Source: Candidatus Woesearchaeota archaeon (lineage in GTDB: Archaea; Nanobdellota; Nanobdellia; Woesearchaeales; WJKB01). From it: 64,000 nt of DNA. The DNA is taken from NCBI GenBank assembly GCA_014729345.1, contig WJKB01000056.1:71-64070 (forward strand), given 5' to 3'. The notes beneath the pieces are model-generated. The model was not told the DNA's origin. It was given only the letters and a program-made list of their open reading frames with translations, and did not search any database. This document shows positions 3,981-53,649 of the stretch, piece after piece (position 1 is the first letter of the stretch; each line of letters begins with the position of its first letter). Position numbers and translations under genes: made by a program.

Positions 3981-3983
3981 GAT

Positions 3984-4202
3984 ATGATGAAATCAGAAAG
4001 CATAAGGCAGTCACTTGACAGGATAGAGGCAGCTGCAGAGTATCACGATCAGCTTGGGGAAAAAGGCTCCGAGTCAGAAGCAGAGGCTCAGAACCTCAGG
4101 CTCAAGATGAAGTATGCCAGAGAACAGGTGATGAAGCAGACTCTTGAGATAAGGGAAGAGGTCGAAAAGCTGGAAGAGAAGATCAGGGAAGAGATCCGGT
4201 GA
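3984..4202 (+). CDS. small coiled-coil protein (72 aa), function unknown
   Basis: Charged heptad-like sequence between the ATPase and the TadC-like gene. Possibly a pilus accessory protein. Confidence 0.3.
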   Translation: MMKSESIRQSLDRIEAAAEYHDQLGEKGSESEAEAQNLRLKMKYAREQVMKQTLEIREEVEKLEEKIREEIR

Positions 4203-4220
4203 TACATCTGAGGCTCTGAG

Positions 4221-6260: not shown

Positions 6261-6264
6261 CAAG

Positions 6265-23041: not shown

Positions 23042-24307
23042 TTATCCCCATTTATGCAAGGCCTTCAGAAGTTCAAGGTGCGTCCTTGCATATTCTGGAA
23101 GAGGTATGCCTTTCAGCTCTGCGTCGACCGCCTGCCTTATAGCCATGGCCCCTTTTCTTGTGCCGTCTGGATGGCCGTGGCAGCCTCCCCCGAACTGTGC
23201 GATTATGTTTGTCCCAAGTATGTCGATAAGTTCTGGCACAAGACCTGGATGAAGGCCGCCTGAAGCCACTGCAAAGACAGGCTTTACCCCTTGCCATCTT
23301 TGCTCCAGGACATGCTGGGACTTGTTTGGATGTATGAGGTCATCCTCTATCTCATCCTCTATAGCCTCTATCTCAGCAGGGCTGCCTTCCATCTTTCCTA
23401 CAGCAGTGCCTATATGGAGCTGGTCCACTCCTATCAGCCTGGCAATCTTCGCTATGGTGAGCATGCTGATACCATGTTTGGGATTCTTGGTGATGGCTCC
23501 GTGCATCGCCCTGTGGGCGTGTATTACCATGCCGAGATCCATCTCTCTCATGGTCTGCAGCGCAGCCCAGCCAACAGTGAGTATATCTATCATCATATAT
23601 TCGCCGCCAAGAGACTTCACATATTCTGCCCGTCTGATCATCTCGTTTGTCTCAGCAGTCACGTTTGGCATGTAGATCTTCTTCTCACCAGTCCATTTCT
23701 CAGCCTTATCCCTGAGCTCAAGGGTCTTATCCACCCGTTTCTCGAACTGGTTGAACCTCTGGGAAGTCAGGTTCTCATCATCCTTGACTATATCAAGGCC
23801 TCCCATCCATGCTTCATATGCGACCTGGGCATGCTGTTCAGGATCAAGGCCTACTTTTGGCTTCACTATCGTACCCAAGAGAGGGCTTTTTCTCTTCTTG
23901 ACAAGTTTTCGTATGCCGTTGACGCCGAACCCAGGGCCTTTGAAGGATCTGATCATGGCTTTTGGGAAGCTTATGTCTTCTAATCTCAGATTTTTCAGTA
24001 TCTTCATCCCGAATATGTTGCCTGCGATGCTGGAAAGTATATCAGGCATGTTGCCAAACTCAAAAAGTTCAGAGGGGTACGCGATCTTTATGATCCCTGA
24101 TTTCTTGTCCATGTAGAAAACATGAGGCTTGAGCCTTTTTGCTATCTTCTCGTTCATGGTGGATATGGCGGTCCACGTGCCTATGGATGACTCGCCTGCT
24201 ATCTGTTCGCATGCTTTCTCAAAGCTGACGCCGTCAGGCTCTGCATAGTACTGCGTGACTACATCATCCTTTCCTGGTCTGTATCTAAGATCTATGTACT
24301 CAAGCAA
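23042..24307 (-). CDS. rbcL: ribulose-1,5-bisphosphate carboxylase/oxygenase large subunit, archaeal type III
   Basis: Signature segments are GESSIGTWT, LLGTIVKPKVGL, GGLDIVKDDENLTSQRF and HAHRAMHGAIT, plus C-terminal GGGCHGHPDG. No small-subunit gene, consistent with form III. Confidence 0.95.
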   Translation of the reverse strand: MLEYIDLRYRPGKDDVVTQYYAEPDGVSFEKACEQIAGESSIGTWTAISTMNEKIAKRLKPHVFYMDKKSGIIKIAYPSELFEFGNMPDILSSIAGNIFGMKILKNLRLEDISFPKAMIRSFKGPGFGVNGIRKLVKKRKSPLLGTIVKPKVGLDPEQHAQVAYEAWMGGLDIVKDDENLTSQRFNQFEKRVDKTLELRDKAEKWTGEKKIYMPNVTAETNEMIRRAEYVKSLGGEYMMIDILTVGWAALQTMREMDLGMVIHAHRAMHGAITKNPKHGISMLTIAKIARLIGVDQLHIGTAVGKMEGSPAEIEAIEDEIEDDLIHPNKSQHVLEQRWQGVKPVFAVASGGLHPGLVPELIDILGTNIIAQFGGGCHGHPDGTRKGAMAIRQAVDAELKGIPLPEYARTHLELLKALHKWG

Positions 24308-29382: not shown

Positions 29383-32300
29383 TCAGCCGGCTGCAGGACA
29401 AAGCATCACAGCATCTGCGTTTGTCGCGCCGTACGGATGCGCCTGGGATGGGTCTATGACTACCTTCTCCTCTTCCCTGCCGTCGAAATAGAAGGTTCCC
29501 AGGGGCTTCCAGGTAAACCTTGCGCAGTTTGCCTGGCCTGCAGTTACCCTTGTCTTCTGGCCCGCATGATGTATCCAGTAGTTCACGCAGCAGCTGGGCC
29601 TGTTGTAGGTGCCGTCATAGCTTGCGCATACAAGGTACTCACCAGGCTCAAATTCAGCTATCCTTCCGAAAAAGTATGTGGCTCTCTGGTCAGATACTCT
29701 TCCGTATCCTTTTGCCTTGCTTGTGTAATAGTCATGGCCTTCATAGTCAAACCCTCCATCATCCATCCAAGGAGCGCTGCCGTTGATGACTGCAAGGCCT
29801 TCATCAAGCTCATCAATAACATAGCATCCTGTCATAGATGTGCACTGTGCCATCTCCTCTTCCCATCTGGCCTCATCCTCCTCAGACCATTCGCAGTCAG
29901 GAACCACCTCTTCTTTCTCCTTTTCAGCGATGTCCATGACGCAGCATTTCTGGTACCTGTCGCATGAGTATTCTGCTTCAGTAAAAGGCATCTCCTCTGT
30001 GTCCTCGCATTCGTCCAGGCATGTCCCTCCATGCGCTGTGCAATCCTGGAGAAGGACCTCTGACATGAACCTGCCTTCCAGTTCCCCTTTTTTCAGCTTG
30101 TCCTTGATCTCTTCTTCTCCTTGCTCATCCAGATATTGGCTGGCCTCTATCTCCTGTACATATGATTCCCAGTTTATGAGGTTCTGGATCGCAGTCACAG
30201 CGTTTTCAGGAGGAATGAGACCATACTCATAATCATCGATAAACTCCTGTGCAAGCGGAACAGGGACGGATGCGATCTCATTTTCGCTGAAAGGCGCTGC
30301 TGGCGGTGGTCGCGCAGCTTCACCAGGGCCTCCTGTCCTGAGCCTCCACAACAACAGGCCCCCTGTAATCCCTCCAAGCAGCAGGAGCAGCGCAAGCCAG
30401 TTCCTCCTTCTGCCCCTTTCCTGTTCAGCTGCAGGCTCCTGGGCAAGCACAGCTTCCTCTCTGGCCGCTTTCTCTGCTGCCTCATGGGGCATGAGCCTGC
30501 CGTCAGGTCTTGTATACTGTCTTCTTCCGCGTCTGTCAACTTGTCCTATGATGTTCTGGCTCCTCAGGTTGTTGACAGCTTCCCTTCCTCTCTGGACAGC
30601 CTCGTCAGGGGTCAGTGTGTTCCCCTCATTGTCCCTGTAGATGACATCTCCCTGCTGGTCGACCTCAGGAGTGATGCCAAGGGCTTCCCTGTCTGCGATA
30701 AGCTCGTCAGTCTCTTTGCGCGCATCTTCTCTGCTTATCCATATCCCTGGCTCGTCTTCCGCAAGCTTCTGTCTCTGCTGTATCCTTCGGTTCACAAGAT
30801 TATAGGTTATTCCCATCGCTTTCCTGGCGTCTCTTGTCTCCTGCACTTGCCTCTTGACATCATCGTCAGACATGAACCTTCCCTGGGAATCACGCCAGCG
30901 ACCTACACCAGGGTCATATGAATAGCCAAGGTCTTTCCTTATCCTCTGCCTTGTCAGCTCGTCCCTTGCCGCCTCATCAGCCTGCTGCTGGGAAGCGAAC
31001 CTTCCCAGAGGGTCACGCCAGCGGCCGACACCAGGGTCATAAGAGAATCCTGCCTGTTCCAGCGCATTCCTGTATCCTGCTCTTGAGATGTAATCAGCAG
31101 CCTCCTGGTCGATCGCCTCTTTTGAGGCAAACCTTCCCTGGGAATCACGCCAGCGACCTACATTAAGGTCATAACTGTACCCAAGCTGCTGGATTGAGTA
31201 TGAATGGACAAGATCCTGCATCTGCTGTCCTGTGACAAACCTGCCGTCAGGACCGCGGTAGCGCCCATCAGCATCCACAGTTATCCCTGCTTCTGCCCTC
31301 ATGTACTGCATATTCTCTTCAGGCGTCACCAGCTGGTTGATGTCTTCCTCAACCGCAAGGTCCTGCTGTATCAGCGGCTTTCTCAGCTCCCTGACAGGCT
31401 CTGTACTGGCTTCTGCTGCAGGCTCTGCTCCGATGATTGCCTCCTCTTCAGCCAGCCATGGTTCGGCAGCCAGTTCCTCTTCCTGCTCCTGGGCAGTCTC
31501 CAGGCTTTCAAGAGCCTCTTCTCCCTGCCTTATCTGGTCCATATATATGGTATGTACATCATCTATAGGTCCTGTCTGCAGTTTGTAGTACCTCTGCGCC
31601 GTGGTCCATGCTCTCTGCCTGAGCCTTTCTGTTTCCTGGCTGGATCTGACATATCTTTCTCTAAGCCCTTGCAGTTCCTGCTCCAGCTCGCGCAGCTCTC
31701 CTCTTGCTGAATTGACCAGCTCCATGTTTTCCCTTTCCTGTTGGGTTCCGAAAGGCATGGCTATGACATCCCCTTTCAGCTGCAGGGCCCTCTGCTCTGC
31801 ATCCCTTATCCACTCGTTTTCTATGCCTATGTCCTTGTCCACATCTGCAGTACCAGGGTGCTCCTGCACAGCTTTCACTGCCAGCGCAAACATCCATTTT
31901 TGGGACTGGTCAGAAAGATCCAGCTCCTGGACAGAAGCCTCGCCTCCCTCCACTGACACCTTTTTTACGCGATAGGTACCTTCTGACCTGTAGACCTCAT
32001 AATAGTCGCCGCTTACGATGCTGCCGTCATCACCCCATACAAGGGGATTATCATCAAAGAACTTTTGAAGGTGTATCTCTACTGCAAAGGCTCCGTCAGA
32101 AAGCCTGTGTATGGTCACCTGCTGCATAGTCTCAAGTGTCTCTCCCAGCTGTCCTTTCCTGAAACCTATGAACTGCTTCACAAGCTCCTCTGCGTTCCCT
32201 GGCTTCTCGGCAGTGTAGGGTTCTGTTGCAGCTGCAACAGCCTGTTCAAGCCTTGACTCTGCAGCTGCAAGAGCCTGTTCAGCCTGTGCAATGTCTGCCG

Positions 32301-33024
32301 ATATCGTGTCCAGCGCTTCCTGCGCCTGGTTTAGGGTTAGCCTGGCCTGTTCTGCGCTCAGCCGAGCATCATCTATCTTTTCTGCATCTGTCCTCTGCCT
32401 GGCTGCTCGCAGGTCCTGCAGCACTTCCTGCAGTGACATCCCCTGCTCTTCCAGGGTCTTTTCCATGATCCTTTCGACATACTGAAACTCTTGCTCTCTC
32501 AACTTCAGGTATGCATCGTAAAGCTCCTGATCATCAACAGCTGCCAGGTAATCATCTACTAATCCCTGGCTGTTCAGCTCCACGTACTTCTGGCTGAACA
32601 CACTTCTGATGTTATCCCTGATATTCTGCTCCATCACTGCAATGGCCTCAGCATCGCTCCGGCCTTTCATATTTAGCCACTCTTCATAAGCTCCTTCTGC
32701 GCTTCCAAGAGAATAGGCATAATCCAGCTGGAGAAGTTCTGGAGCATATCTGAACTTCTGTCCTGTATCCTGCCTAAAGGCATATCCGAGGCTGTCGACG
32801 CCTGCAGCATCATAGTCTCCTGAAAGGATATCAGCCCTGATATTCTGCTGCTGCTCTTGTGAAAGATCTTCGAAATGTCTGTTATGGCGCTGCAGAGAAA
32901 GCGCCTCTGCCTGCCAGCCCTCAAAGCCCGTAGGGCAGTTTGCCTGAGCAAAACAGAAAGGAAGCATGACAGTAAGGACTATCATGAAGGTTGCCATGGT
33001 CTTGAGGTTTTTTGTGTGTCTCAT
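29383..33024 (-). CDS. large secreted/membrane protein (1213 aa) with three tandem about 42-aa repeats and Cys-rich C-terminal domain
   Basis: N-terminal signal peptide ending FAQA. Three repeats centred on GYSYDPGVGRWRDSQGRF, with DNA repeat period about 130 bp at 30880-31200. An internal TM helix reads WLALLLLLGGITGGLLLW. The C-terminal about 330 aa contain at least 19 Cys. Confidence 0.7.
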   Translation of the reverse strand: MRHTKNLKTMATFMIVLTVMLPFCFAQANCPTGFEGWQAEALSLQRHNRHFEDLSQEQQQNIRADILSGDYDAAGVDSLGYAFRQDTGQKFRYAPELLQLDYAYSLGSAEGAYEEWLNMKGRSDAEAIAVMEQNIRDNIRSVFSQKYVELNSQGLVDDYLAAVDDQELYDAYLKLREQEFQYVERIMEKTLEEQGMSLQEVLQDLRAARQRTDAEKIDDARLSAEQARLTLNQAQEALDTISADIAQAEQALAAAESRLEQAVAAATEPYTAEKPGNAEELVKQFIGFRKGQLGETLETMQQVTIHRLSDGAFAVEIHLQKFFDDNPLVWGDDGSIVSGDYYEVYRSEGTYRVKKVSVEGGEASVQELDLSDQSQKWMFALAVKAVQEHPGTADVDKDIGIENEWIRDAEQRALQLKGDVIAMPFGTQQERENMELVNSARGELRELEQELQGLRERYVRSSQETERLRQRAWTTAQRYYKLQTGPIDDVHTIYMDQIRQGEEALESLETAQEQEEELAAEPWLAEEEAIIGAEPAAEASTEPVRELRKPLIQQDLAVEEDINQLVTPEENMQYMRAEAGITVDADGRYRGPDGRFVTGQQMQDLVHSYSIQQLGYSYDLNVGRWRDSQGRFASKEAIDQEAADYISRAGYRNALEQAGFSYDPGVGRWRDPLGRFASQQQADEAARDELTRQRIRKDLGYSYDPGVGRWRDSQGRFMSDDDVKRQVQETRDARKAMGITYNLVNRRIQQRQKLAEDEPGIWISREDARKETDELIADREALGITPEVDQQGDVIYRDNEGNTLTPDEAVQRGREAVNNLRSQNIIGQVDRRGRRQYTRPDGRLMPHEAAEKAAREEAVLAQEPAAEQERGRRRNWLALLLLLGGITGGLLLWRLRTGGPGEAARPPPAAPFSENEIASVPVPLAQEFIDDYEYGLIPPENAVTAIQNLINWESYVQEIEASQYLDEQGEEEIKDKLKKGELEGRFMSEVLLQDCTAHGGTCLDECEDTEEMPFTEAEYSCDRYQKCCVMDIAEKEKEEVVPDCEWSEEDEARWEEEMAQCTSMTGCYVIDELDEGLAVINGSAPWMDDGGFDYEGHDYYTSKAKGYGRVSDQRATYFFGRIAEFEPGEYLVCASYDGTYNRPSCCVNYWIHHAGQKTRVTAGQANCARFTWKPLGTFYFDGREEEKVVIDPSQAHPYGATNADAVMLCPAAG

Positions 33025-33115: not shown

Positions 33116-36100
33116 TCAGGTACATGCCTCTACCCTGCCTGTAGATTCTGGCATCAGAGCTTCATATTCTGGAATGACCTGCTGCTGTTGTTCAAACAGC
33201 TTGTAATTGTTGTATATTATCTGGGATGCGAAGTCTCTGAGTACAAATGATGCATGTACAAAGTCAACCTCTTCAAAGGAATCATAATAAGCCCTTGTCT
33301 GAGAGATGTCCATCATTGCAGGTTGAACTCCTGGTATCCTCACCATCCGCTCACTTGCCCTTAGTTCCTGTATCACTTTGTCAACATATTCCTGATTTCC
33401 GTCGAAAAGGGCAAGCAGCATTGACTGGAATTCAGGGCTTTCAAGGCCTTTTTCAGTAAGCAGATGCTGGTTGTTATTGTAAGCCATGTAGACCTTGTTC
33501 ATATGGTTGTACAGCCGAGCCACCACATTCTGCGTCATCTCTCTGTCTCTTTCTGCACCCTGGGACTGCACCCTGTATGGCTCTCCAGGATCTGTCTCCC
33601 TCATAAGGGGGTCAACATCCTTGCCGATCCTATATTCAGGCCTGTAAGCGAGTCCTGCCTGGATATGCGACCCGATAAGGGCGCCTGCGTTTGAAAACGC
33701 TGTAATTGTCTGGTAAGCTGGCCCGAACTGTTCTCTTATACTAGAGATATCCTCCAGGCTGGCTGCATAATCAACAACATCAGATCTTTCGCTGGAATCT
33801 ACAAGGAATATCCTGAATGTTACTCCATTTCCAGCTTGATCCAGTCTTGTGAATGCGAAACTTCTTGCAAGTGCTGGATGACCTTTTGCGACAAGGTCTT
33901 CCTCATTCTGCTGTGCTTCTATATCATACCTGTAGTCTGTCATCCCTATACTTGTTGTTGATATCTCCTGATATTCATGCTCAAATCCTATGCCTGTCTT
34001 AAAGGTGTACTCAGGAGCAGATACCCGTGTTTGGCCGTCATAGTAATAACCCTGGAAATTCGGGGTCCCTATGCCTTTCAAACCTATCCTGTAACCGTAC
34101 TGCACCTTATGGGTGGATGGGTCATACTCGATAGCAGACTCGGTAAGATGCTCAAAGAAGATCTCATCCACCTCTCCGGTCTGCTTGTTGACTACAATGG
34201 TAGTGGGCTGTTTGACATGGAACTCTCTTCCTCCCTGCGCAAAGACAGGTATATCATTACCTGTGTATTCAAGTCCGAACAGGACCTCTATCTCATCTTT
34301 GCTAAGATCATTGAAGTTCCTGTCCCAGACATCTCCGGCTATAGGCACAGGCATGCCCACCTCATCAGGATTCCGGTCTTCTCCCTCAGACTTGATCTCT
34401 GCTATTCCATCCTGGTATTCTTCTTCTGTTATCTGTCCTTGTTGTCTCTGCCGGACCAGAGATCTGACTTGCTCAAGCTTTTCCCTGCTTCCCAGCTTTT
34501 CAGAAGCCGTATACAGTCCTGCGACAACAGCAAACTCCTTGTATTGATGGTCTGCGCGAGCTACCCTACTGATCGGAAGTGCTTCAGCCATCTGTTCCCT
34601 AAATTCATCATTTCTCTCAGCTTCTGTCTGTCCAGGGATATTGCCCTGCCTCATATCTTCGACTATTGCCATAGCAGCATCGTATCTTTCCTCAGTCCCT
34701 GCTATCTTCCACAGATGTACCCTGAACTGATCTTCGGTGAGCCTTCCGGCTTCTGCCTGCCTGAACCTTGTGACTGCCGCCAGACCAGGATTTCTTTTGT
34801 TATAGATATCTCTTTTTGAGATTTCTGATTGCTCCATGATTCTTTCTCTTTGCTGTTCATCCAATGCCTGGGCATCCAGGATGTTGTTCAGGTTTTCCCT
34901 GATCCTGGTTTCCATAGACACCTCTGGAACAACAGGTTCTGCCGCAGGCTCTTCCTCCACAGCAGGCTCCTCTGCCTCAACCATTTCCTCTACTTCTGAA
35001 AGCTGTGCAATCAATCCCCTTTCAGTTTCAGCCTGGATCTCCAGTGCATATGCCGCTCTCTGGGCCTGCCTGACAGTCTCTGCTCCATCTGCAGGAGGGG
35101 CCAGCCTGCTGTCTATGTCTGTTACAGCAGTCACAGGTACATCCACCATGTCCTGCAGACCGTTCTTGACTGCCCTTACAAAGGAATCCTGCCTCACATC
35201 GCTTTGATAGCTGTTGATGATGTATACATCGTCCCCTTGCACAAACACCTGAAGATCTGCAACACCTGTAATCTCTGCTGCTCTTCCGGCGATCGCTGCA
35301 GCAGCATCAGCCTCGATCCCAGGCGCGTTCAGGACAGTAACTGAAGGGGAGGATATGGATTCCAGCTGCTGAGACCTGCTCTGGATATTCTGCATGATAT
35401 CCATCGCTGCTTTTGCTGCACTTGAGCCAAGACTAAGCTCGGTCTCCACTGCAAGCTGTTCTCCCTGCTCCTGCCTGATCTCTTCAGCCAAATCCTGTAT
35501 AGCGCTCTCATACTCCTGTAGTGCCTGCTCGTATGCAGCCAGCCTCCTTTCATAAGCTATGCTCCCTTCCTGAGGCATGGTGGGCCTTGTGATACCCCTT
35601 TGCTGTGCCTGCTGCTCTGCAAGCCTCTGGATCTCAGCGGCAACTCCATTTTCAACATCCTGCTGCATTAAAAGGTATATCTCATTAAATGTATCCTGGA
35701 ATTCCCTGCCTGCAAACCTTGTTTCTTCAAGCGCAGAGCGGGTTGTTGCAGCATATTGCGGAAGAGCCTCATCTATGATCCTGTTCTTCTCATGGGTCAG
35801 GCCTCTCTCAACAAACCTTTGGGCTGGATTCAGCCCTACCATCCCCATTATTTCAGCATTATCCACCAGGTCTGCAGCTTCAGGGATCCCCTGCAGACGC
35901 TCATAGAGCAGTGCTGCCCTATGGTTCTTTCCCAGCCCAACCAGGCTGTTGAAGTAGCTCTCTGCTTCCTGAGCTGACATGCCTGCGATCACCTCTGCCT
36001 CCGTGCTAAGAGCAATGATCTCTCCAAAAGGGCTTTCCACAGCCTGGACTGCTGATGCTTTCAGGCCGATGATATCTGTCCTTACCTGCTGCTCCATACC

Positions 36101-39100
36101 CTCAGGCACCTGCTCCTGCACAGCCAGGTATATCTCTTCAGCTGTATTCTCTCTGACCATATCGACTGTAAGCGCGTCCCTTATCCCAGGCATGTCCTGG
36201 AACCTGAGCCCGATCTCCCCTCTGACCTGTTTTTCCAGCGCAAGCTCTTCGACTATGATGCCTTCTCCCAGAAGCTCCCGCACATCTATCCCGATATTTT
36301 CCTGCCTGTACAGGAGGGCTGCAAACTGGTCTGCTACGTCTGAGTCCGCCCTCAGGAGCTGCAGGTACTGTCTTGCTGCTGCCGTTTTCATATCCCTGTC
36401 CATCCCAGGGTCCATAATCGTGTCAAGCAGGGTGCTGAACCTTTCCTCAAGTATAATATCAATCCTTTCAAGAGAAAGTTCCTTGAGCGCAGAATCAGGC
36501 TGCTGGTCTGTCAGTCTCTTCCGCTGCACGAGGTTGTTGGTGATCACAGGCCCGTATTGCAGTTCTATTATCTCTCTTTGCGCATCCAGGGCCTGACCAA
36601 ATCCGGACTCATGGGCGCTGATATATGCTCTTGCCGCCTCATCATTGACCTCTGAAGCCCTGCGCACATCATCATAGTACTGTTCACCAAGCAGTCTCTT
36701 CAAGAATTCTTCACTCCTTTCATTGTTCCTGTTCTGTGCCAGCCTCAGTATTGCGTTCTCCACACTGGACTCGTCTGTATAGTAATACCTCTCCCCTCCA
36801 CTGATAGCTGTGATAGTGTCTACTGCGCTCATCACCTGTATAAGATCCTCTTTTCCTTCCAGTAGCGCAGGCAGCTCTCCAGGAGTCCTTGGATATCCCC
36901 TGTACTCCTGCCCTGGCTCAACACCCATGTGTACATGGTGCGATGCCGCAAGCGCAGCCACAGTGGCCTGGTCCCTCACTTCAGCAGATATGTCTGTCCT
37001 GGAAGCTATCTGTGCATAAATGGCATCTATCCTAGCCTGCACATCCTCATGAACTCCTGTATCAAGCCTGCCCTGTGCATCATACATCTGGACAGTGTTG
37101 CCCTGCTCATCAACATAAAGCGCATCGATCTCTGCTATCAGATCAGCAGGCATATCAGGATTATCCCTGGCCATGAGGTAAAGCAGCGCCCTTTCTGTAT
37201 TTGTGGGATGGACTGTCATGTAATCCTGGAAGAAGTTTTCAGTCATTCCGACTCCTGTGATTCCGCTCTGCTCTATCTGCTCTTCTGTAAGCCCCCTTGC
37301 CCTTAGTTCATCCACAGCTGCAGCCTTTGCATCGCTGCTGAAAATTGTCTCAAGGTTCTGCGCAGGCCATTCGAGCTTGCCAAGGTCATGCACAGCCATG
37401 GCTCTCCTCAGCAGATCCATGTCATCATCTGATAATCCGAGCTGTCCTGCAACCGCAGCTGCAGCCTCAAGATTCCTCATGCTCATAAGAGTATGGACCA
37501 TGGTCGGGGAGGGGTTATGGGTGGCAAGGGCCTCAAGCGCAGCGATCTGGTTCTGGGTTAGGCTGTCTTCAGGCAGCATGTCTCTAAGTTCTCCTGTAAG
37601 CTGCACTCCCCATGCGATCCTCTGGGACTCATATTCTTCATCATATGTTATTCCGTCTACAGTGCTTGGAGCTCCGAAAGCCTCCCTCTCAAGCCTTTCG
37701 ATAGGGATTTCCACCTCACCGATTATCTGCACTTGAAGCGGCCTTGATTCCTGTGCAAGCGCACGTATCTCCTGCATCTGCTGGTCAGCGGCAAGATTGA
37801 CCTGGAAGACCCCCATGCCCGCAGACTCAAACAGCGCCTCTGCATTAATTATCCATGCATCTGTCACTGTCCATACGCCCTCCTGATCCTGCTCAAGATA
37901 TCTTACCTCCCCTGTGTTCACGTTTGAATATCCTGCAAACAGGCTCTCAAGACTTTCCTGCTCTGAAAGCAGCTCCTCCCTGTAAGCTTCTTCTTCAACA
38001 GTCAGGCCCTCAGCTGCTTCCTGCTTATCAAGCATTCCGATCTCATCACCCGCCTCGCTTAGACGGTTTTCTATATTTGTCTCAAGAGCCCTCATCCTTG
38101 CACTCGGCCCTCTCAGTCCGAGCGCTGCCATGGCAAACTCATTTGCAAGCTCTTCTCTTGCATCTTCCATGGTCTCGTCAGCTGTCATCTGAGCAGCATC
38201 CACAGCCATGTCTGTGAGGTCCTGCGTCCTAAGGAGCAGCTGCTCGTGCCTTTCATGCATGAATATGAATGACCTTACCATGATGTCTGGCTGCCCTTGC
38301 AGCTCAGGGAAGGCATCCCTGACAGCGTCGACTGTCTGCGGAGAAGGATCCACAAAGATATCTGACTCTGTCGAAAGTCCTGCAAGTATGTAGGTGCCTG
38401 TAGGTGTCTGGATCTCGAGAGGTGAGGCAGGCGCAGTTATCTCAAAGTCTATCAGGCCCATCTCAGCAAGATTGGAAAGAGGGGTCGCAAGCATGTCTGC
38501 TGTAGGTCCGCCCTGCGAGTAATAGATGTTCTTGAGCCTGTCTGAGTACGCCATCACCCTGTTGACTGAAGGAACTGCTGCAATCTGTCTTGCCATAAGG
38601 AATTTGGCAGCTTCTCCGTACTGTTCTGATTCGATTGCGCTCACAAACGCCCCTATGACCTCGTTCGGATTGCTCCTGGCCAACTCCAGCGCTGTCGATT
38701 CAATGTTCCTTAGAGCGTTGATGTCACCCCCATATGCCTCATAGCCTGCAGCAAGCGCAGCTGCAGCATCATAAGCGTCCTGGCTGCTTTGGGATGCTGT
38801 CTCGAGCAGCTGGGCTGCAGAAGCTCTTGAGACGTCGTCATTCCTGCTCTGCAGCGACCTCACCATCTGTTCGGGAGTGGCAGTATCCCTTGCAGCCTGC
38901 AGCAGCTGCTGGTCCATGAGGTTCTGCACTGCCTGCAGATATATGCTTTCCATGGCAATTGTCTCATCTGTCCTTCCCTGCTGTTCTATCTCCATAAGCC
39001 TCATGAATTCAGCCCTTATCTCTCCTGAACTGATAGCTTCAGCATAAGCTGCAGCAGTTACATCAGGATCCACTCCGTACTCCTGTCCTGCGGTGTAGAC

Positions 39101-42100
39101 CACTTTGTCGATATTCATGGCCTGCAGTCTTTCAGACGCTATCTGTTCTTCTGTCTTCTGCTTCATCTGCTGTCCGTACAGCTGGGCTTTTGCGTCTTTA
39201 GCATAATTTTCCTGGTGCCTCTGCTCAATTGCTTCGAAATCAGTCACACCTTCTCTTGCAGCCAGGTGCCTTGCAGTAGCTTCCACCTCAGTCCTGACTG
39301 TCTGCGCTATGGATTCCAGCCTTATCTGTTCACTGACCGATGTCTTTACTTTCTCCTCGAACATGTCCTGCCTTACCCGCTCATCCACTATCCGGGCAGT
39401 CTCTGCCTGATCATATCCGTTTGCCTGTGCAGCCTGCCTTATCTGCTCAACCTTGTCATAAAGCGTCTGTTCCACCCTCTGCTTGTATCTCTCTTCAGCC
39501 TGCTCCATGTAAGAGCCCTCTGCATCTGTAAGCCCCAGATTATGCAGGGCTTCCACAGCCTCGATCTGCTGTGCAGCGACAGTATTGCCTTCCTCAGCAG
39601 TCTGGGCTATGTCTGTAGCTATCTGCTCAGAGGACCTGAAGGACAGCTCGTCAGCCAGGGCCTGATCCTCTGCTGTGAGCTCTTCGCCTGCTGAAACCTT
39701 TTCGTCGATATCTGCCTGTCTTGCATCGATAGATTCTCTGACAGCGTCTTCTATGGTCTTTACCTGCTGCATATTGCCTTCAGAGTCTACCATGGTCTCG
39801 ACAGCTACACCTTCAGCAGCTGCGACCACAGTGTTTCCTTCTTGTCTGTACACTACTTTTTGGGCTGTGGCCTCGACCATCTCAACTCCTGCTATCTCGG
39901 ATATGAAACTTGCAAAGTCCTGCACATCTCTTCTGTTGTGCAGGGTCAATCTCTTGTAGTTGGTGTTGCCTGCCTCGTCCACAAGTGTCTGCTCGCGCTG
40001 GAAGTTGGGTGCATCCACCCCTGCTGCTGTCAAAACCTGGCCGTCGATCTCCATGCTTTGGCCTTCACTGATGCTTCTTTGGTTGGTGTTGATGAACACG
40101 ATATTTGAGGGGCCTCCTGTGTTCACTGTCTCAGCCCTGACTATGCTGTTGTCTGAACTTACCGAAGTCCTGTATCCCCTGCTTTGCAGTGACGCCTGTA
40201 TATCATCTGTCCTTATACCTTTCACCATGATCTCCTGAGAGATGACGTTGTCAGCGCTGTCAAATGTTATCACTCCGCCTCTTGACACTTCTGCTGCAGG
40301 ATTGGCGGTCCTTATCGCGTTTTCAGCTGCCTGTGTCACAGTGGTGTCCATCTTGGCTTTTGTCACATCAGAAGCATCGACTCTTGTGCTTATCCTAGAT
40401 ACGCTTGAAGCAGAGGTGTCGCCTCTTGCAAGGCCTGCTGCTATCTGTGCGCCGGTCTTTCTTATGGTGACATCCTGCTGGCTGACGTCTACTCCCTTCT
40501 CATGCAATACCACTGCTCCTGTATTGTCCCCTATCTCACTCTGGAAAGTGATGATACCGTCAGTGTCTGTGTTGAGTGTCCGAGCATTGAAGCCGGCTGT
40601 CTGCGACAGTCCTGTCTGCAGTGTCTGCATTGCCTCAGCATCCTGCATAACACCGTCAGCCACCTCAAGCTCCATGATCTTCTGTCCTCCTTCAAGTATG
40701 GCGGTGTGGGCTATGGTCTCTACAGCTATCTCGCCGACGTCAAATTTTGCATCAACATTGAGCCCGATGTTTGATAGTCCTGCTTCGCTTATGTCTGGAG
40801 TCAGGAGTACTGTATCTCCAAGGCTGCTCTGGTAAGAGAAAGCAGCGATCTCTCCTGCAGCATCCCTTATCTCCTGCCTGTTTGTCAGCTCAAGTGCTCT
40901 TTCGATGTTTTCAAGGTTGGAGGGATCCTGTCTGGCTGCTTCAAACTGGTTTTGGGAGAGCTGGCCTGTAGTTGTCACTCCTGAGGCTGTGACAAAAGTC
41001 CTGACATTGCTTCTTCCCAGGGAATTAAGGTAAGAGTTATACATCTCGCCGTGTCCTGCAATCTGCTCAAATGTGTCTGGCAGGGCTGAGAACTGTCTGG
41101 CAAGCGCCTCTCCTCCTAGCTTCTCTCCGAACTTGCCCAGGGCAGAGCCCAGCTTGTCTGCATAGAAATACTCTTCAAGGGCGATCTCGCCGACCCAATG
41201 CTCAACATTATTCCCGACAAATTTCACGACAGAATTCATTACCTTGCCTGACGGTCTGGTGCCGCCCAAAAGGCTTTTGGTGAAAGAGGAAGCATAGTTA
41301 CCCACCTTGTTGGATACAGAATACATGCCTTTTGCAGTTTTCTGTATCCCTGAGCCTACCTTTCCCACCCCTCTCACCACTGTCCCCAGGGCTTTATAGG
41401 CTCTGCCTGCATCGTCTGCATATGAGGTGGCTTTGGCTGCCGCAGAATACGCTGTTTTGATCTTTCCCATGACAGCTCCGCTCAAATGTGATATGGCCTT
41501 TGACTGGAGTTTCATCATTGCAAAAGACTGGCCGGTTGTCATCTTGTCCCCAAACCCATCCTCATACCTGTCCAGATCTTCCATCTCAAGCTTGATAGGT
41601 ACAGCGCCGTCCTCTGTCTGGAAAGTGTAGGAAGTCTCAAGCTCTATCTCATCCGAGTCCAAATCGATCCCTGAATACTCAGCTATGTCTCTGGCATGCG
41701 TCCTGGTATTCTGGACAGCGTTCTCATAAAGTTTGATCGTCGATTCAGCCCCTAGGCCAAGCCTTTCAAGTCCGTTCTCATGATAAACTCCTTCAGCATC
41801 TGTACCTCCGTATGCTATGTTCAGAGCTTTTTCTATAGCATTCTCTCCATCAGTGGTTCTGCCTTTGAGGATCTCTTCTGTAGTCACTATATTCTCCATA
41901 TCGCCGTTATATGTTGCGATCGAGAGTTCTGCCGCTTGCCTGATGCCTTCAGCTCCCTGCAAAGCATCATCATATTCTGCAAGCGAGTCCTCGATATGGT
42001 TTCCTGTGCCAAGATTGATCCCAAGAATGTCGCCCCATTCATCCCAAACTTCCCAGGCAGGTATAGCTTTTGTCACTCCCAGGCTGGTCACATCCTCCCA

Positions 42101-45100
42101 TCCATAGTCCACAAAACTTTTTATCTTGTCAAGCCCTTCATCATGGAATATCTCCTTGAGGACTGCTCCCATCACTATTTTTTTTGACTGCACATAGTTT
42201 ACGTATGCTTGGCTTCCCTCAACTGTACTGGGAGTGCTGTATACCCGCAGTGTCTCTCTTGCCTGTTCAGAAAATTCCTGGTCAGTATCCTGCGCTTCAT
42301 ACTCTGTCTCCTGGTGCTCGACATCCTTGTTCATCCATTCCTGGGCGATCTGCCGGCCTTCACTGGTCCAGTACCCTCCTTTAAGAAAATAGTCCAGGAG
42401 CATCCTGTTCTTCTCAGAAGATGTCTTGTCAGCCTTTAACTGGAATGCGTTTCTTTCATCCTTGATAGCAAGCGTCTCATCTATCATGGCCTCGACTCTT
42501 CCGCTATCCTCGAGATAATTATCATATGTATCACCCCAAAGCTCAGTGTCTGACCTTTGGATGCCAAATTTCTCAGTTAGCGCGCTGATGGTCTTGAGAT
42601 GACCGTTCATGTCCACTTTCAGGTCAATCATGTCCTTCTCAACTGCTGCAAGGTCGTATTCTTCTTCCACTATAGGATCTCCTGTAATAGTTGACCTTGC
42701 TGCGTTCCAGGCTCCGGTAACTGCATCCTGCACATTCTCTCCAAATCCTGTGGCTGCGCCTGACCATGCATCAACATATGATGAGAAAGCATACCAGGGA
42801 GCAGAAGGGTCCCTTGCCTGGATCTTCCTGTCAAGATAGTTCTGCGCCTGGACATCGCCTATCCTTGCCTTAAGGTCAGCAGCCAGGCCAGAGATACCCT
42901 GGATGGTCTGCGTGCTCAGGTCTCCCTGCTGAGCATCTATGATCTCTCTTGAGGCAAGCTCTTTTGAGTAGGCATCTGCCATTATCTTAAGGTCATTGAC
43001 CTGCTCCTTCAGCGCCTCATTGGCCCTGCCTGAGATCTCAACCACTTCAGCAGCGTCCTCTAGAAGGCCCATCACCCGCTTCCCTCGAGCAAGGAGTTCT
43101 TGATCATCTATGCTGCTGAAAGTCTGGATATACTTTTCCTCTTTCACCTGGTCCTCAAAGCCCTGCAGGGTATTTTTAAGAGACTGGATATAAGCTACAT
43201 CAAGACCCTCTTCCCTTGCCTGTCTTATCTGGATCTCAAGGTCTGACATGACCTGCTCCCTGTCAGCTTCTCCCAAAGCAGCAGCCCTTGCATCAATACC
43301 AGCCATCAGATTCGTAAGCGTACTGATATCCTGCCTTGCAGCTTGCCTGGCTGCATTGTCCCTGACTTCAAGACTGGCCTTGTCACCCACGTAACTTACA
43401 TACTCCACTGTCTCAAAGTATTCATTTTCCTCAAGCTTGTCACTATAGGCTCTTATCTTGAATTCGAGCATTGTTTTTGCCCTTTGCTGGGCCTCAAGAG
43501 GCAGCTGCCTGATAGATTCTTCCAGCTGCTCCATCTCCTCATGCGTAAGGTCCTCCTCCTTTCTTGCAAGCTGGGATATCCTCTGCAGGGTTTGGGGCAC
43601 CTGTTCGATCTGGTCTTCAAGCTCGCTTTTTTCTTTGTCAACAAGAGTCTTTATGCTCTCATCCTCTGTTTTGACCCTGTCCAGCACATTGATTGCATCC
43701 TCCAAGCGTCCCAGGTTTGTATAAGCGGTCGTCAGGGCGTTCTGGACAGCAAAATTGTCCTCCTTGCCTTGAGCATATTCCTCAAGCGATTCAGTGTTTC
43801 CGGTCCTTAGCAGCAGGTTTGCATAATATGACTGCACACCATCGATATCACTGGAATCCTCATCTTTCGCAAGCTGCTCAAGCTTACCGTAGTCTTCAGC
43901 CTCAAGATAGGCTCTTGCCAGATTGGTAGCCAGCTTCTCGTACTCCTCGCTTGAAGAGTCAGCTTCCCGCAGTTCTGTCTCAAACCTCTCAATCATCTCA
44001 GAATAGGTTCCTTCACCCCTTGCTTGCTGGAAATCTGCTTCTGTCTCAACATTTGCGATCAGAGCCTGCGCATAATCTCTTTGCTGAACAGTCGTCGCCA
44101 GCTCTTTAGCCTTTGAAAAAAACCCTTCAGCTTTCTCGTAATCTGTATCCTCCCTGCTGAGCTCTGCAAGGCCCACCATGATATTCTGCTGTGCGTCCAG
44201 GAAACCGACCATCTCTTCAGAAACCTCTCCATATACTCCCTGCCTGGCTGCCTCAAGTGTGCTGGAAAGGATTCTTGAGGCCTCCTCATAATCTTCTGCC
44301 TGCTGCTGGATGTTCGCAAGCTCTGAATTGGCCTGTGCCCTTATATCACCTGGAGCTGCCTCTTCATCTGCTAATGCGGCAAGCTGCTCCTTTCTACTTT
44401 CAACATCCTCTTCCTGCTTGATGGCGCTGAGCTTAGCGCTGTAAAACTCAAGATTGATCCTGTCAGCCTCTTCTGACCTGCCCTCCTCGTTAAGTTGATC
44501 TATGGCAGCCTGGTAGGCATCAAACATTTCCTGTTTCTGCTCATCATCAAGGGAATCCTGGGCCTGCAATATCCTTGCCAGGTTCACTTTAGAGTCAGCG
44601 CTGCCGACAGCATCCACATAATCTTTTGCTGTCTGCAGGGCTTCTGTTTCTGCTCCCTGCTGCATATGCGCGCTTGTAAGTATCTTCCAGGCATCCTCCC
44701 TCTTTGCATCCAGTCCTAACACATACTCAGCAGCCCTTTCTGCTCCTGCTGCATCCTCCATCTGCAGCCTTGCTGAGGCTTTCTGGAGCGACAGCTGTGT
44801 GGTCTTTTCAAAATAATCATTCAGGGAATCAAACCCTGCCTGCTCCAGGTCATAGCCAGCTCCTCTGACCTTTTCTGCAAGCGCCCTTTCAGCAGCTTCT
44901 GAATACACTGTGGCCAGCTCAGCATTTCCGAGCTGGGAATATATGCTGCTCACAGCTGCATAGACATCTGGATTGGTGGTGTCTATGTCAAGATAGCTCT
45001 GGTATTTCTCCAGGGCTTCAAGGATATCACCCTGACTCCGCAACTCCTCCGCATCCTTAAGCAGTTGTGCATTTTCAAAGATCTCCACCAGCTGCTCCTT

Positions 45101-48019: not shown

Positions 48020-49059
48020 TCAAGCACCAGCCATTCAAAGTTTGCCTCATCAGTGTACCCTGAACCGTCTGTAACCTCAACTGTCACGTTGAAGCTGCCG
48101 GTGATCCTGGGCACGAAGTCCACGCTTCCGTCCTTTTCCACATCGAACATGATGTGGTCTGACCTGAAGGTGAGCTCGTCTCCGTCAGGGTCTGTGGCCT
48201 GTATCTGATACACAAATCTCTCATTGTCCACCCCTACCAGCCTTTCAGGCATGGTGATCACAGGGTACTTGTTCACAGGGACCGTGGTTCCGAACATAAA
48301 AAGGTAAGGCTCTCCTGGCCTCATGGCAGAGCGATTGTCCTGAAAAGCGTATATTATAGTGTCCTCGCTTACAGGCATCACTATGATGTCAAGGTCATAC
48401 TCGAGCAGTGGGGTGAACTGCACCCAGCCCGGATCCTCAACCACAAGATCATTCACCTCGTTTGCTGTGTTGAGTATGTAGCTGAGCCTGTGTGGGATGA
48501 TCACCCTGAACCTTTCAAGCCTTCCCTCGCTTTCCTCAATCGCTGCATCTACAGGGTACTCCATCTCAAACACCAGCTCATTGACAGCTATGGTCACAGT
48601 GGTGTTGGGTTCGCCCGCTTCCACAGACCATCCCTGCTGCTCAAAAGAGCTGAAGTTTGTGCATTCCTCAAGCATCTGGTCCACATACAGGGCAAGCTGG
48701 CTCTCTATCTCTGGCTGCGTGGGCCTGAGATCCCCCAGCTCGTCATCATACCACAGGCTTACTGCTGAGAATTCTGTGACAACTGAAGTGTTTGGAGGAT
48801 ATGCATATCCTCCCTGAACCCCGTTAAGGTAAGCTCCGTCGATCGCTGTCTCCCTCAGGCAGCCGGTGATATAGTTATGCAGGGGCCTGAGCTCTGTGGG
48901 CACCTCTATCAGCTCCCTTTCCACTTCTGGCCTGTAGATTCCGAAAAGATACCATATTGTTGCCGCGAGTATCAGGATGACCAGGCCTATTATGACAAAC
49001 AGCGTCACCTGTCCCCTGCTTCCTTTCTTACGCATTTGCCAGCCTCCAGAAGCTTTCAA
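48016..49059 (-). CDS. prepilin-like (class III signal peptide-like) membrane protein, 347 aa
   Basis: N-terminus is KKGSRGQVTLFVIIGLVILILAATIW: a basic region, RG, then a long hydrophobic helix as in type IV pilins. Translationally coupled to the giant gene. Confidence 0.45.
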   Translation of the reverse strand: MKASGGWQMRKKGSRGQVTLFVIIGLVILILAATIWYLFGIYRPEVERELIEVPTELRPLHNYITGCLRETAIDGAYLNGVQGGYAYPPNTSVVTEFSAVSLWYDDELGDLRPTQPEIESQLALYVDQMLEECTNFSSFEQQGWSVEAGEPNTTVTIAVNELVFEMEYPVDAAIEESEGRLERFRVIIPHRLSYILNTANEVNDLVVEDPGWVQFTPLLEYDLDIIVMPVSEDTIIYAFQDNRSAMRPGEPYLFMFGTTVPVNKYPVITMPERLVGVDNERFVYQIQATDPDGDELTFRSDHIMFDVEKDGSVDFVPRITGSFNVTVEVTDGSGYTDEANFEWLVLE

Positions 49060-51948: not shown

Positions 51949-53649
51949 CTATAGCTTCCTGACCATATAAACCCCTTCTTTCCTATAGCCTAACTTCCTG
52001 TAATACTCCCTTGCGCCTATTCCAGATATCACAACGAGCTTGTCCCTGTTGTATGTCCTTGCTATCTCTTCAGCAGCCTTAAGCAGCTTCTTTCCCAAGC
52101 CTGAATGCTGGACATTTCCTTTTCTTCCCAGCCTCGCAGCCTCTCCATAGACATGCAGCTCCCTGACAAGCACAGCATCCTCGGTTATCTCTTTCCTGAG
52201 GCTTTGCGCCGGAAACCTCAGCCTGCAGAAGCCCATCACATATCCCTTGTATTGCGCCTCTATGTAGAACTCTCTGCCGAAAGATGCGTTGTAATACAGG
52301 ATGATTATCTCAGGCTTTCCTATCTTCCCCCTGAAGTTTCCTATCTCCCTGCACCTTATGCACTGGCATCTGATATCGTCCTTTTTCATCTCTTCCTTTA
52401 TGTACTGTCTTAGGTTTGTCTTGTCCACCCCTGCAGATATCATCTTTGAGGGGATGTCTCTCTGCACCCTCATTATCCTGCAGTAGGGAGGCACGTATCT
52501 CTTGAACTCTGCGATAAGCTTTGCTGCCTTCTTTGTTGTGAGGGGCTTATATTTTCCCTTTTTCCATAAGTCATACAGTTTTGTCCCCCTGACCACCATA
52601 CAGGGATACAGCTTCAGCATGTCCGGCCTGTAACGCTCGTCCTCAAACAGGGATATCATGCCCGTGAGGTCTTTCTCATAGTCAACCCCTGGCAGCCCGG
52701 GCATGTAATGGACATTCACCTTGAACCCAAGGTCCTTCAGCACAGCCATGGCCTCTTCATTGTCAGCTGCCCTGTAACCTCTTTTTATCCTTTTCAGCAC
52801 ATCATCATAGACCGACTGCACTCCCAGCTCGACCCTTGTACAGCCCAGCTTCAGCATGCGGTTCGCATGCTTCAGTTTTGCATGATCTGCCCTTGTCTCT
52901 ATGGTCATGCCTACGCACCTGATCACAGCTTTCTCGTTCTTCTTCTGGATGTTTTCAAGCTTCTGGCTGCCTTTTCTCTTCAGACTGAGCGCCTTTGAAT
53001 GTATCCTGCTGGTCCTTTCAGGGTCATCTATTGCTCCTGGAAGCTCGAAGAAGTCGCAGAACTTTCTGAAGCTGAGCCTTCTCCTGCTGAAGAACTGCTC
53101 TGAGAAATCGTTCATGGCCTTTAGCGCGTGCTTGACAAAGTTTTCCTGATAATTCCTGCTGAAGGAGGGAAACGTGCCTCCCATGATGATAAGCTCGACC
53201 TTCTGGGGGTTCTTGTTCATGGCCACGTACTGCTCAAGCCTGTTAAAAACCTGCAGGTAAGGATCATATCTGTTCCTTATCGCCCTTCTTGTGGCAGGCT
53301 CTTTTCCAGTATAGCTCTGCGGCACATTCCCAAATGCGCTGCCAGGGCCTCCAGGGCACATCACGCATCTTCCATGAGGGCATCTGATGGGCTTTGTCAT
53401 TATGGCCACCACAGCCACGCCGCTCATGGTCCTTGTGGGCTTGATCGTAAGAAGCTGGCTGAACCTTTCCCTTTCAGAAGCAGTGGCTGCTGCAGCAAGA
53501 TCCACATTTGTAGGGATAGTGCTGATGTCCTGGTATTCCTTCCTTTTAAGGACCTGGAGCTTAAGCTGGTTCAGTCTGCGCTGGTCTTTTATCTTCTTTT
53601 TCTTCATCTCTGAGATTATATCCCTGCAGAGGCGCCTGAACATTTGCAT
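51949..53649 (-). CDS. elp3: Elp3-family radical SAM / GNAT tRNA modification enzyme (tRNA uridine(34) carboxymethyltransferase homolog)
   Basis: Radical-SAM Cys cluster CPHGRCVMCPGG in an Elp3-type N-terminus, and a C-terminal GNAT acetyltransferase fold (GIGAREYYRKLGY). Length 566 aa. Confidence 0.9.
   Translation of the reverse strand: MQMFRRLCRDIISEMKKKKIKDQRRLNQLKLQVLKRKEYQDISTIPTNVDLAAAATASERERFSQLLTIKPTRTMSGVAVVAIMTKPIRCPHGRCVMCPGGPGSAFGNVPQSYTGKEPATRRAIRNRYDPYLQVFNRLEQYVAMNKNPQKVELIIMGGTFPSFSRNYQENFVKHALKAMNDFSEQFFSRRRLSFRKFCDFFELPGAIDDPERTSRIHSKALSLKRKGSQKLENIQKKNEKAVIRCVGMTIETRADHAKLKHANRMLKLGCTRVELGVQSVYDDVLKRIKRGYRAADNEEAMAVLKDLGFKVNVHYMPGLPGVDYEKDLTGMISLFEDERYRPDMLKLYPCMVVRGTKLYDLWKKGKYKPLTTKKAAKLIAEFKRYVPPYCRIMRVQRDIPSKMISAGVDKTNLRQYIKEEMKKDDIRCQCIRCREIGNFRGKIGKPEIIILYYNASFGREFYIEAQYKGYVMGFCRLRFPAQSLRKEITEDAVLVRELHVYGEAARLGRKGNVQHSGLGKKLLKAAEEIARTYNRDKLVVISGIGAREYYRKLGYRKEGVYMVRKL

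Follow-up and report, generated by a model that had tools for sequence, protein, structure and literature searches.

The giant gene and its HD-GYP-like domain

A giant gene encoding a protein with an HD-GYP-like domain has been identified on a contig of Candidatus Woesearchaeota archaeon, a tiny archaeon of the symbiotic (DPANN) type. The window, that is, the whole stretch of DNA analysed, comprises 64,000 nucleotides (assembly GCA_014729345.1, contig WJKB01000056.1, positions 71 to 64,070), and all coordinates are given as window positions. The giant open reading frame (ORF) (33116..48019, minus strand) encodes 4967 amino acids in one uninterrupted 14.9-kb frame. Its product is identical to MBD3310105.1 in NCBI, a 'hypothetical protein GF351_02710 [Candidatus Woesearchaeota archaeon]', encoded on a contig of 64,154 bp. 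The HD-GYP-like domain occupies residues 3488-3790 (~36650..37558, minus strand), including ~115 inserted residues. The first-pass annotation of this DNA had placed the motif set at 36850-37520, an interval that covers the HD, HH and GYP motifs but cuts off D3734, the RxY motif and the C-terminal helices.

All elements of the domain are encoded on the minus strand. The N-terminal half (residues 3488-3556, 37352..37558) contains the helix of the first His and the HDLGK motif, and is significant on its own in profile comparisons. The sequence RRAMAVHDLGKLEW corresponds to residues 3538-3551 (37367-37408) and includes the HDxGK motif, H3544-D3545-L-G3547-K3548 (37376..37390, HD at 37385-37390), which comprises putative metal ligands and a conserved Lys. 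The candidate first metal-ligand His, H3509 (37493..37495), matches the family His only with a 3-residue gap. H3604, in the sequence MTVHP (37208..37210), aligns with the invariant third His. The sequence AASHHVHMGVEPGQEYRGYPRTPGEL corresponds to residues 3691-3716 (36872-36949) and contains both the pair H3694-H3695 (36935..36940), which aligns with the invariant HH, and the tripeptide G3708-Y3709-P3710 (36890..36898), which corresponds to GYP. The residue after the His pair is V3696, where the family has Glu, and the D/N-G that precedes GYP in the family is E-Y. D3734, in the sequence SAVDTITA (36818..36820), aligns with the invariant last metal-ligand Asp. The residues R3744-Y-Y3746-Y3747 (36779..36790) correspond to the RxY[K/R] motif, with Tyr replacing the basic, Gln or Asn residue. 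Two large insertions with approximate boundaries interrupt the domain. Insertion 1 (residues ~3559-3589, 37253..37345) adds ~31 residues and replaces or disrupts the KPG motif, and insertion 2 (residues ~3620-3685, 36965..37162) adds ~66 residues between the third His and HH.

The motif order is rarely reproduced by chance. In 20,000 composition-preserving shuffles of the whole protein, HD, HH and GYP occurred in order in 1.5e-4, and the pattern H-x(20-40)-HD[ILVM]GK occurred in 3e-4. In 300,000 shuffles of the 231-residue segment that follows the HD half, the chain of family-invariant residues H..HH..GYP..DxxxA..RxY was found in 1.7e-5, a value obtained with generous spacing windows picked after the data were seen. 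Histidine makes up 0.9% of the protein and is threefold enriched in the domain, which holds 8 of the 46 His residues (binomial p 0.004). The only other place in the giant protein touched by the HD-GYP hidden Markov model (HMM) is residues 2799-2851 (39467-39625, minus strand), where a faint 'LHNLG' match to the HD-motif region stays below significance at -1.5 bits.

Homology of the N-terminal half

Residues 3400-3800 were searched by phmmer against 1.84 billion representative proteins, and four matches were returned, including the query itself. Two of these are relatives of the domain, P0003 (E 1.6e-7) and P0004 (E 1.4e-4), each of which contains three tandem HD-GYP domains. In BLASTP, residues 3493-3573 align to each repeat of both proteins. 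An HMM constructed from the six P0003 and P0004 repeats scores 30.2 bits at residues 3490-3558, and an HMM from 149 HD-GYP domains scores 20.7 bits. Comparison by hhalign with a 36-member HD-GYP alignment gives a probability of 95.9% and an E-value of 5e-9 over residues 3488-3556. The domain is ~19-28% identical to bacterial HD-GYPs in a multiple alignment referred to here as A2.

The remaining phmmer match, P0002 (E 4e-12, 4350 aa), was rejected as a relative. It is a cadherin-like repeat protein, and its score is summed over 12 of its own repeats, which match a short stretch upstream of the domain. These 12 near-identical repeats each align with residues ~3468-3512 ('LRDMLPEDSLTQNQIAALEALA' versus 'LRNSIPEESIPANQIIVLELSA'), and the case illustrates that the summing of repeats can yield a misleading database-wide E-value.

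Among curated models, Pfam HD (PF01966) reaches 14.7 bits with the whole protein, whereas fragments give 19.9 and 20.5 bits, with an E-value of 6e-4 for a 301-aa fragment. TIGR00277 (HDIG) gives E 0.0037, and the model of NosR-type c-di-GMP (cyclic diguanylate) phosphodiesterases gives a sub-threshold E of 0.041. A phmmer search of PDB sequences returned no HD match. Profile similarity to the HD superfamily is thus significant over the H...HD helices, and the PF01966 gathering cut-off of 22 bits is not reached. On these comparisons the HD half is judged, beyond reasonable doubt, to be homologous to the HD domains of the HD-GYP type. The first-pass annotation had read the region as an HD-GYP-like or HD phosphohydrolase module, and this reading is upheld by the phmmer, hhalign and six-repeat HMM values. 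The check that it proposed, with HMMs of the HD family, succeeded for the HD half by hhalign and phmmer, and failed at the Pfam level, where HD remained below its cut-off and HD_5 gave no match.

The C-terminal half and the structural model

The C-terminal half was placed by multiple alignment of 100 domains (three MAFFT modes) and of 36 or 120 full-length proteins, as well as in alignment A2, and column counts are given over 120 members. The ligand set HD, H, HH and D occurs in order, and its columns hold the same residue in 117-120 of the 120 members. H3544 and D3545 each stand in columns with the same residue in 117/120, and G3547 and K3548 in columns with Gly in 120/120 and Lys in 109/120, respectively. 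The columns of H3604, H3694 and H3695 contain His in all 120 members. G3708 and Y3709 are also invariant (120/120), and Pro is found at the position of P3710 in 115/120. In the last part of the domain, D3734 is invariant (120/120), and A3738, R3744 and Y3746 fall in columns with Ala in 116, Arg in 119 and Tyr in 109 of the 120 members, respectively. The single alignment that hhalign produces for this half is the expected one, in which HH, GYP, D and RxY are each paired with their family counterparts. In BLASTP, the HH-GYP-Asp-RxY stretch is colinear with the P0003 and P0004 repeats, with weaker E-values (0.005-0.02).

An AlphaFold2 model guided by alignment A2 has a pLDDT (predicted local distance difference test) of 82.6 and a pTM (predicted template modelling score) of 0.81. 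The inserted segments are also predicted with high confidence, although they have no aligned homologues. For insertion 2 the model shows a helix followed by a small beta-meander and a pair of helices (pLDDT 86-95). The guided model has the all-helical HD bundle fold. Among solved structures, HD-GYP domains match it best along the whole length of the domain, with DvhD (9rbz) as the top structural match. The modelled C-terminal half superposes as well, since the alignments extend over more than twice the 69 residues of the N-terminal half. The top five Foldseek matches are the same HD-GYP entries, but with E-values of 0.07-0.17, and a search of viral folds in BFVD gave no meaningful match. The guided model is best taken as consistent with an HD-GYP fold and not as independent proof of it. 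The two outcomes that the first-pass annotation had named as speaking against the domain, an absence of any significant HD profile match and a fold without the HD bundle, did not arise.

Departures from the HD-GYP family

The spacing of the motifs differs strongly from that of the family. Family intervals were measured in 101 canonical domains (first His to HD, HD to HH, HH to GYP and HH to Asp) and in 118 aligned members (HD to third His and third His to HH). The first His and HD are separated by 35 residues in the giant protein, against a family median of 32. The interval from HD to the third His is 60 (family 29-30), and that from the third His to HH is 90 (family 22-33). HD and HH are thus 150 residues apart (family 51-62, median 53). 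The HH to GYP interval, which is 8 in 101/101 family domains, is 14, and the interval from HH to the ligand Asp is 40 instead of 27-29. The core is therefore interrupted by ~115 extra residues (+3, +31, +66, +6 and +11). The statement of the first-pass annotation that the motifs have the expected spacing does not stand; their order is canonical, but their spacing is not.

Several signature residues are also altered. The fixed-spacing signature HHExh(D/N)GxGYP is replaced by HHVHMGVEPGQEYRGYP, in which HH and GYP are kept, Glu is replaced by Val, and D/N-G is replaced by E-Y. No Lys-Pro-Gly follows HDxGK, and the ~31-residue insertion replaces or interrupts this region. R3744 and Y3746 of RxY[K/R] are kept, whereas the fourth position is Y3747; among the 120 family members this position is R in 96, Q in 18, N in 5 and Tyr in none. 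The first ligand position is matched through a gap, H3509 being aligned with the family His by hhalign and by the domain-only alignments. No Glu or Asp is present at the position of E185 of PmGH, a third-metal ligand.

These residues have defined roles in characterized enzymes. The HDxGK Lys and the RxY Tyr reportedly contact the cyclic dinucleotide in the PmGH structure. Further contacts to this dinucleotide in PmGH come from the Tyr of GYP and the Arg of RxY (bioRxiv 10.1101/2021.11.05.467447). The KPG and RxY[K/R] motifs read the guanines, with KPG binding the second guanine, and Q and N variants shift the specificity to cGAMP (cyclic GMP-AMP) (Galperin & Chou, bioRxiv 10.1101/2021.11.05.467447). 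Because the KPG and RxY[K/R] residues are altered, the substrate-reading part of the giant domain lies outside the known range. At most a binuclear site is expected, since no acidic residue occupies the E185 position (rule from bioRxiv 10.1101/2021.11.05.467447). With the fixed-loop signature broken, KPG absent and the Pfam cut-offs out of reach, the giant domain is an insertion-bearing variant and not a regular HD-GYP member.

Export signal and other features of the giant protein

The N-terminus of the giant protein (residues 1-39, 47903..48019, minus strand) is signal-like, with a basic n-region, a hydrophobic core at residues 19-33 and the sequence AAA-Q. A Kyte-Doolittle scan of the whole protein identified residues ~14-40 as its sole hydrophobic stretch. 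This N-terminus resembles a Sec-type signal peptide or an N-terminal anchor, and the protein appears to be exported, in agreement with the earlier prediction of a secreted giant protein. The giant protein is acidic (pI 4.36). It shares this property with a 1213-aa neighbour, and the two proteins have a pI of 4.4-4.6 and a D+E content of ~18%. The cytoplasmic proteins of the contig reach pI 10, and ELP3, RuBisCO, PilB and Spt5 are not acidic. A 'salt-in' adaptation of a halophile was ruled out as the cause of the acidity by these four proteins. The acidity is therefore a property of the giant and 1213-aa exported proteins and not of the whole proteome.

Weak TPR-like repeats are present at residues ~827-1042 (44894..45541, minus strand), where TPR_19 scores 24.2 bits against a cut-off of 25 and designed TPR proteins in the PDB are matched at E 0.006-0.09. 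Apart from these repeats and the HD signal, nothing in the giant protein matched Pfam or NCBIfam in scans of the whole protein. Two plus-strand ORFs that overlap the domain (36929-37306 and 37257-37736) are shadow ORFs of the giant gene. Word-indexed searches returned no homologues of the domain region (residues 3400-3800) or of the C-terminal 568 residues, and a scan of genome contigs returned no relatives of the domain. The giant protein is an orphan in the searched collections, with no homologue of the domain region beyond P0003 and P0004 and none of the C-terminus.

Gene neighbourhood and archaeal origin of the contig

The genes on one flank of the giant gene encode ELP3, an Na/Ca exchanger, DTD2 (PF04414), L11, Spt5-NGN/KOW, FtsZ and FKBP26. 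The other flank encodes a RuBisCO large subunit, NFACT and a PilB3/T2SSF-type pilus locus. The RuBisCO large subunit is assigned by Pfam to the family only, and we take it to be of form III type. The GC content is 0.50 in the giant gene and 0.48 in its flanks. The contig is genuinely archaeal, as the first-pass annotation had supposed, with Spt5-NGN, DTD2, ELP3, FKBP26 and the presumed form III RuBisCO as markers. Bacterial contamination is unlikely because archaeal genes are found on both sides and the GC content is like that of the flanks.

The giant gene is preceded by a gene for a 347-aa protein (48016..49059, minus strand) with an N-terminal transmembrane or signal segment and a Big_9 immunoglobulin-like domain. 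The stop codon of this gene overlaps the ATG of the giant gene by 4 bp (ATGA), which suggests that both genes belong to one operon. The gene for the 1213-aa protein (29383..33024, minus strand) follows 91 bp past the giant gene. This protein (pI 4.56) has a signal peptide, and its C-terminus is Golvesin_C-like (30.9 bits, just below the cut-off of 31.6). The three genes together look like a surface-protein operon.

Other genes in the window include an archaeal type IV pilus or adhesion-filament-like locus (2241-7176, plus strand), which encodes a PilB3-like ATPase and two T2SSF-family membrane proteins. A 215-aa protein (18221-18868, minus strand) carries a C-terminal Fis-type HTH_8 domain (67.7 bits), which is described by Pfam as a bacterial regulatory protein, yet is present on this archaeal contig. 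The genes for the form III-like RuBisCO large subunit (421 aa, 23042-24307, minus strand) and for the ELP3-type radical-SAM/GNAT protein (51949-53649, minus strand) are markers for placing the metagenome-assembled genome (MAG).

Proposed function and alternative explanations

The explanation that we favour, and consider fairly likely as a whole, is that residues ~3488-3790 are homologous to the bacterial HD-GYP subfamily, from which they have diverged strongly, with a metal site and phosphodiester hydrolysis outside the cytoplasm. Its parts are held with different confidence. Homology to HD-GYP is very likely. The domain probably binds metal, and a functional metal site with catalysis is modestly favoured. 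The residues H3544, D3545, H3604, H3694, H3695 and D3734, and possibly H3509, would form an Fe/Mn centre that is binuclear at most, with Y3709 and R3744 facing the phosphodiester. The module may then cleave a phosphodiester bond in a nucleotide-type substrate, and this would take place outside the cytoplasm, either on the cell surface or where the archaeon meets a partner cell. Substrate recognition probably differs from the way in which PmGH reads c-di-GMP, because the KPG Lys, the basic residue of RxY[K/R], the Glu of HHE and the 8-residue HH-GYP loop are replaced. That c-di-GMP is the physiological substrate is improbable at best.

A number of observations weigh against this explanation. 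No curated cut-off is reached, Pfam HD giving 20.5 against 22 bits and HDIG 17.1 against 27.6 bits. The C-terminal half alone is not significant (hhalign E 0.19; HMMs -2.8 and -3.7 bits), and Pfam HD_5 (PF13487), the model for the HHE-GYP half, gives no match even at E<=10. With profile scores that are not significant on their own, this half is supported instead by the order of its motifs, by multiple alignment and by the guided model. The single-sequence AlphaFold2 model is uninformative (pLDDT 45), and the resemblance of the guided model to HD-GYP is partly built in, since the guiding alignment consists of HD-GYP proteins. An ungapped register puts M3512 in the column of the first ligand His and H3509 on a conserved Thr. 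Invariant or near-invariant residues are replaced, namely E by V3696, G by Y3706, the second Asp of DxxDA by T3737 and R/Q/N by Y3747. In five of the six P0003 and P0004 repeats, HD is replaced by YD or FD. The extracellular placement is read from the N-terminal sequence, and because the giant protein is an orphan, purifying selection on the ligands cannot be shown.

The main alternative is a catalytically dead HD-GYP relic that serves as a structural or a ligand- or protein-binding module of a giant surface protein. Degenerate HD-GYP domains with a role as c-di-GMP receptors or interaction modules provide precedents. Non-catalytic HD-GYPs are documented (bioRxiv 10.1101/2021.11.05.467447). 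The extreme divergence, the ~115 inserted residues, six of which fall in the otherwise invariant 8-residue HH-GYP loop, the residues lost at V3696, Y3706, T3737 and in RxY[K/R], and the Met in the first-His column of the ungapped register all agree with a relic. So do the nearest relatives, in which HD is mostly YD or FD, and the top structural match, DvhD, which is described as a c-di-GMP receptor that regulates adhesins. However, the documented inactive HD-GYPs have lost the HD and the His residues of HHE (Galperin & Chou, bioRxiv 10.1101/2021.11.05.467447), whereas the giant domain retains HD, the third His, HH and the ligand Asp despite ~75-80% sequence divergence in a His-poor protein. 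A receptor for a nucleotide second messenger would moreover have no obvious ligand outside the cell. A relic is possible but less likely than the favoured explanation.

That short motifs came together by chance in a protein of 5000 residues, or that bacterial DNA was wrongly assembled into an archaeal bin, is hardly credible. The Pfam and NCBIfam cut-offs are unmet and the profile scores of the C-terminal half are not significant alone, as chance or mis-assembly would allow, and the few archaeal HD-GYP examples, ORFs in MAGs, are mostly suspected to be contamination (Galperin & Chou, bioRxiv 10.1101/2021.11.05.467447). Chance is opposed by the E-values of phmmer (1.6e-7) and hhalign (5e-9) and by shuffle probabilities of 1.5e-4 to 1.7e-5. 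Mis-assembly is opposed by the position of the domain within an uninterrupted 14.9-kb ORF in the middle of the 64-kb contig, with archaeal genes on both sides and similar GC content. The domain is no recent contaminant, because it is only ~19-28% identical to any bacterial HD-GYP. The domain could also be a general HD phosphohydrolase or nuclease that scavenges extracellular or host nucleic acids or nucleotides and feeds a DPANN cell presumed to depend on salvage. The replaced specificity residues and the apparently extracytoplasmic location fit such a role, and nucleotide supply has been proposed for the restriction-enzyme-like domain of SPEARE proteins, though this domain is intracellular (PMC6642349). 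This role is nevertheless unlikely: the GYP Tyr, the RxY Arg and Tyr and the HDxGK Lys are retained, and the sole sequence relatives are HD-GYP proteins.

A more specific and speculative version of extracytoplasmic hydrolysis, likewise unlikely, is that the giant protein is a contact-dependent effector scaffold whose HD-GYP-derived module breaks down a messenger of the partner or host cell, either a cyclic dinucleotide or a cyclic oligonucleotide. The insertions and the RYYY and HHV changes would retune the module for this purpose, and candidate targets would include c-di-AMP (cyclic di-AMP), signals of the 3'3'-cGAMP type used in CBASS (cyclic-oligonucleotide-based antiphage signalling) and cyclic oligoadenylates. 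The analogy is with a phage HD-GYP that destroys 3'3'-cGAMP (bioRxiv 10.64898/2026.07.21.739742). If true, this would be the first archaeal symbiont that disarms host nucleotide signalling or immunity from outside.

Significance

In bacterial c-di-GMP and cGAMP signalling, HD-GYP domains are seen as the output modules, at work in the cytoplasm. To our knowledge, there is no description of such an enzyme in an extracellular giant protein of an archaeon. If the favoured HD-GYP-derived hydrolase is active, a fold of the cyclic-nucleotide phosphodiesterase type would have been recruited by a DPANN archaeon for extracellular or inter-cellular chemistry, and a clonable fragment of ~300 residues would provide a handle on the role of DPANN giant surface proteins. 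The domain shows how far the fold can be remodelled, with ~115 inserted residues and a longer GYP loop, while its HD, third-His, HH and Asp ligands are kept and only the first His is out of register. The remodelled domain is also useful for building more sensitive HD-GYP models.

Comparison with known systems

The characterized HD-GYP domains PmGH (4MCW/4MDZ), PA4781 (4R8Z), Bd1817 (3TM8) and DvhD (9RBZ), of the c-di-GMP phosphodiesterase class, have the same motif order as the giant domain (H, HDxGK, H, HH, GYP, D and RxY). The giant domain resembles the binuclear subgroup, such as PA4781, which also has no acidic residue at the E185 position. It differs from canonical HD-GYPs in having HHV for HHE, E-Y-R-GYP for D/N-G-x-GYP and RYYY for RxY[K/R]. 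Canonical HD-GYPs form the C-terminus of cytoplasmic sensor proteins, whereas in the archaeal host this one is internal to a giant protein whose N-terminus is signal-like. The cGAMP-specific HD-GYPs (V-cGAP3 of V. cholerae, 5Z7C) and the phage HD-GYP that degrades 3'3'-cGAMP represent the known variants RxxQ and RxxN, whereas the giant protein has Tyr at this position.

The closest sequences among the 1.84e9 proteins are P0003 (MBI3924038.1, 1189 aa, from an Armatimonadota MAG) and P0004 (898 aa, from a Logan assembly). They are ~21-25% identical to the giant segment in the MAFFT alignment A1, and local BLASTP identities are 27-40% over 45-151 residues. They share with it a helix 'AALEKL..' before the first His, the sequence 'LGLs.e....L..A', and 'GK(L/T)xWP/VP' right after HD. 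Unlike the giant domain, their repeats are bacterial and of compact canonical length, with a perfect HHERPDGKGYP. Both proteins also have a Pro-rich, apparently disordered N-terminus and a common 'LPVPLFI' region. P0003 and P0004 seem to represent a family, so far undescribed, in which the tandem HD-GYP domains are mostly degenerate.

The 7TMR-HD c-di-AMP phosphodiesterase of the PgpH type (Lmo1466, 4S1B) scores below the HD-GYP entries. Its HD domain is cytoplasmic and lies behind seven transmembrane helices, unlike that of the giant protein. PgpH is also said to lack the GYP and RxY motifs, both of which are present in the giant domain.

The SPEARE proteins of Nanohaloarchaeota contain serine protease, laminin-G/adhesion and type III restriction-enzyme domains and a C-terminal transmembrane anchor (PMC6642349). 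Scans of the whole giant protein with Pfam and NCBIfam identified no protease, laminin-G or restriction-enzyme domain, and no sequence relation to SPEARE was found. The anchor and nuclease of SPEARE are C-terminal and intracellular, whereas the only hydrophobic segment of the giant protein is N-terminal. The general plan is nevertheless alike: in both cases a host-dependent DPANN archaeon encodes a largely extracytoplasmic protein of several thousand residues, in which adhesion-like regions are combined with enzyme domains (PMC6642349 for SPEARE).

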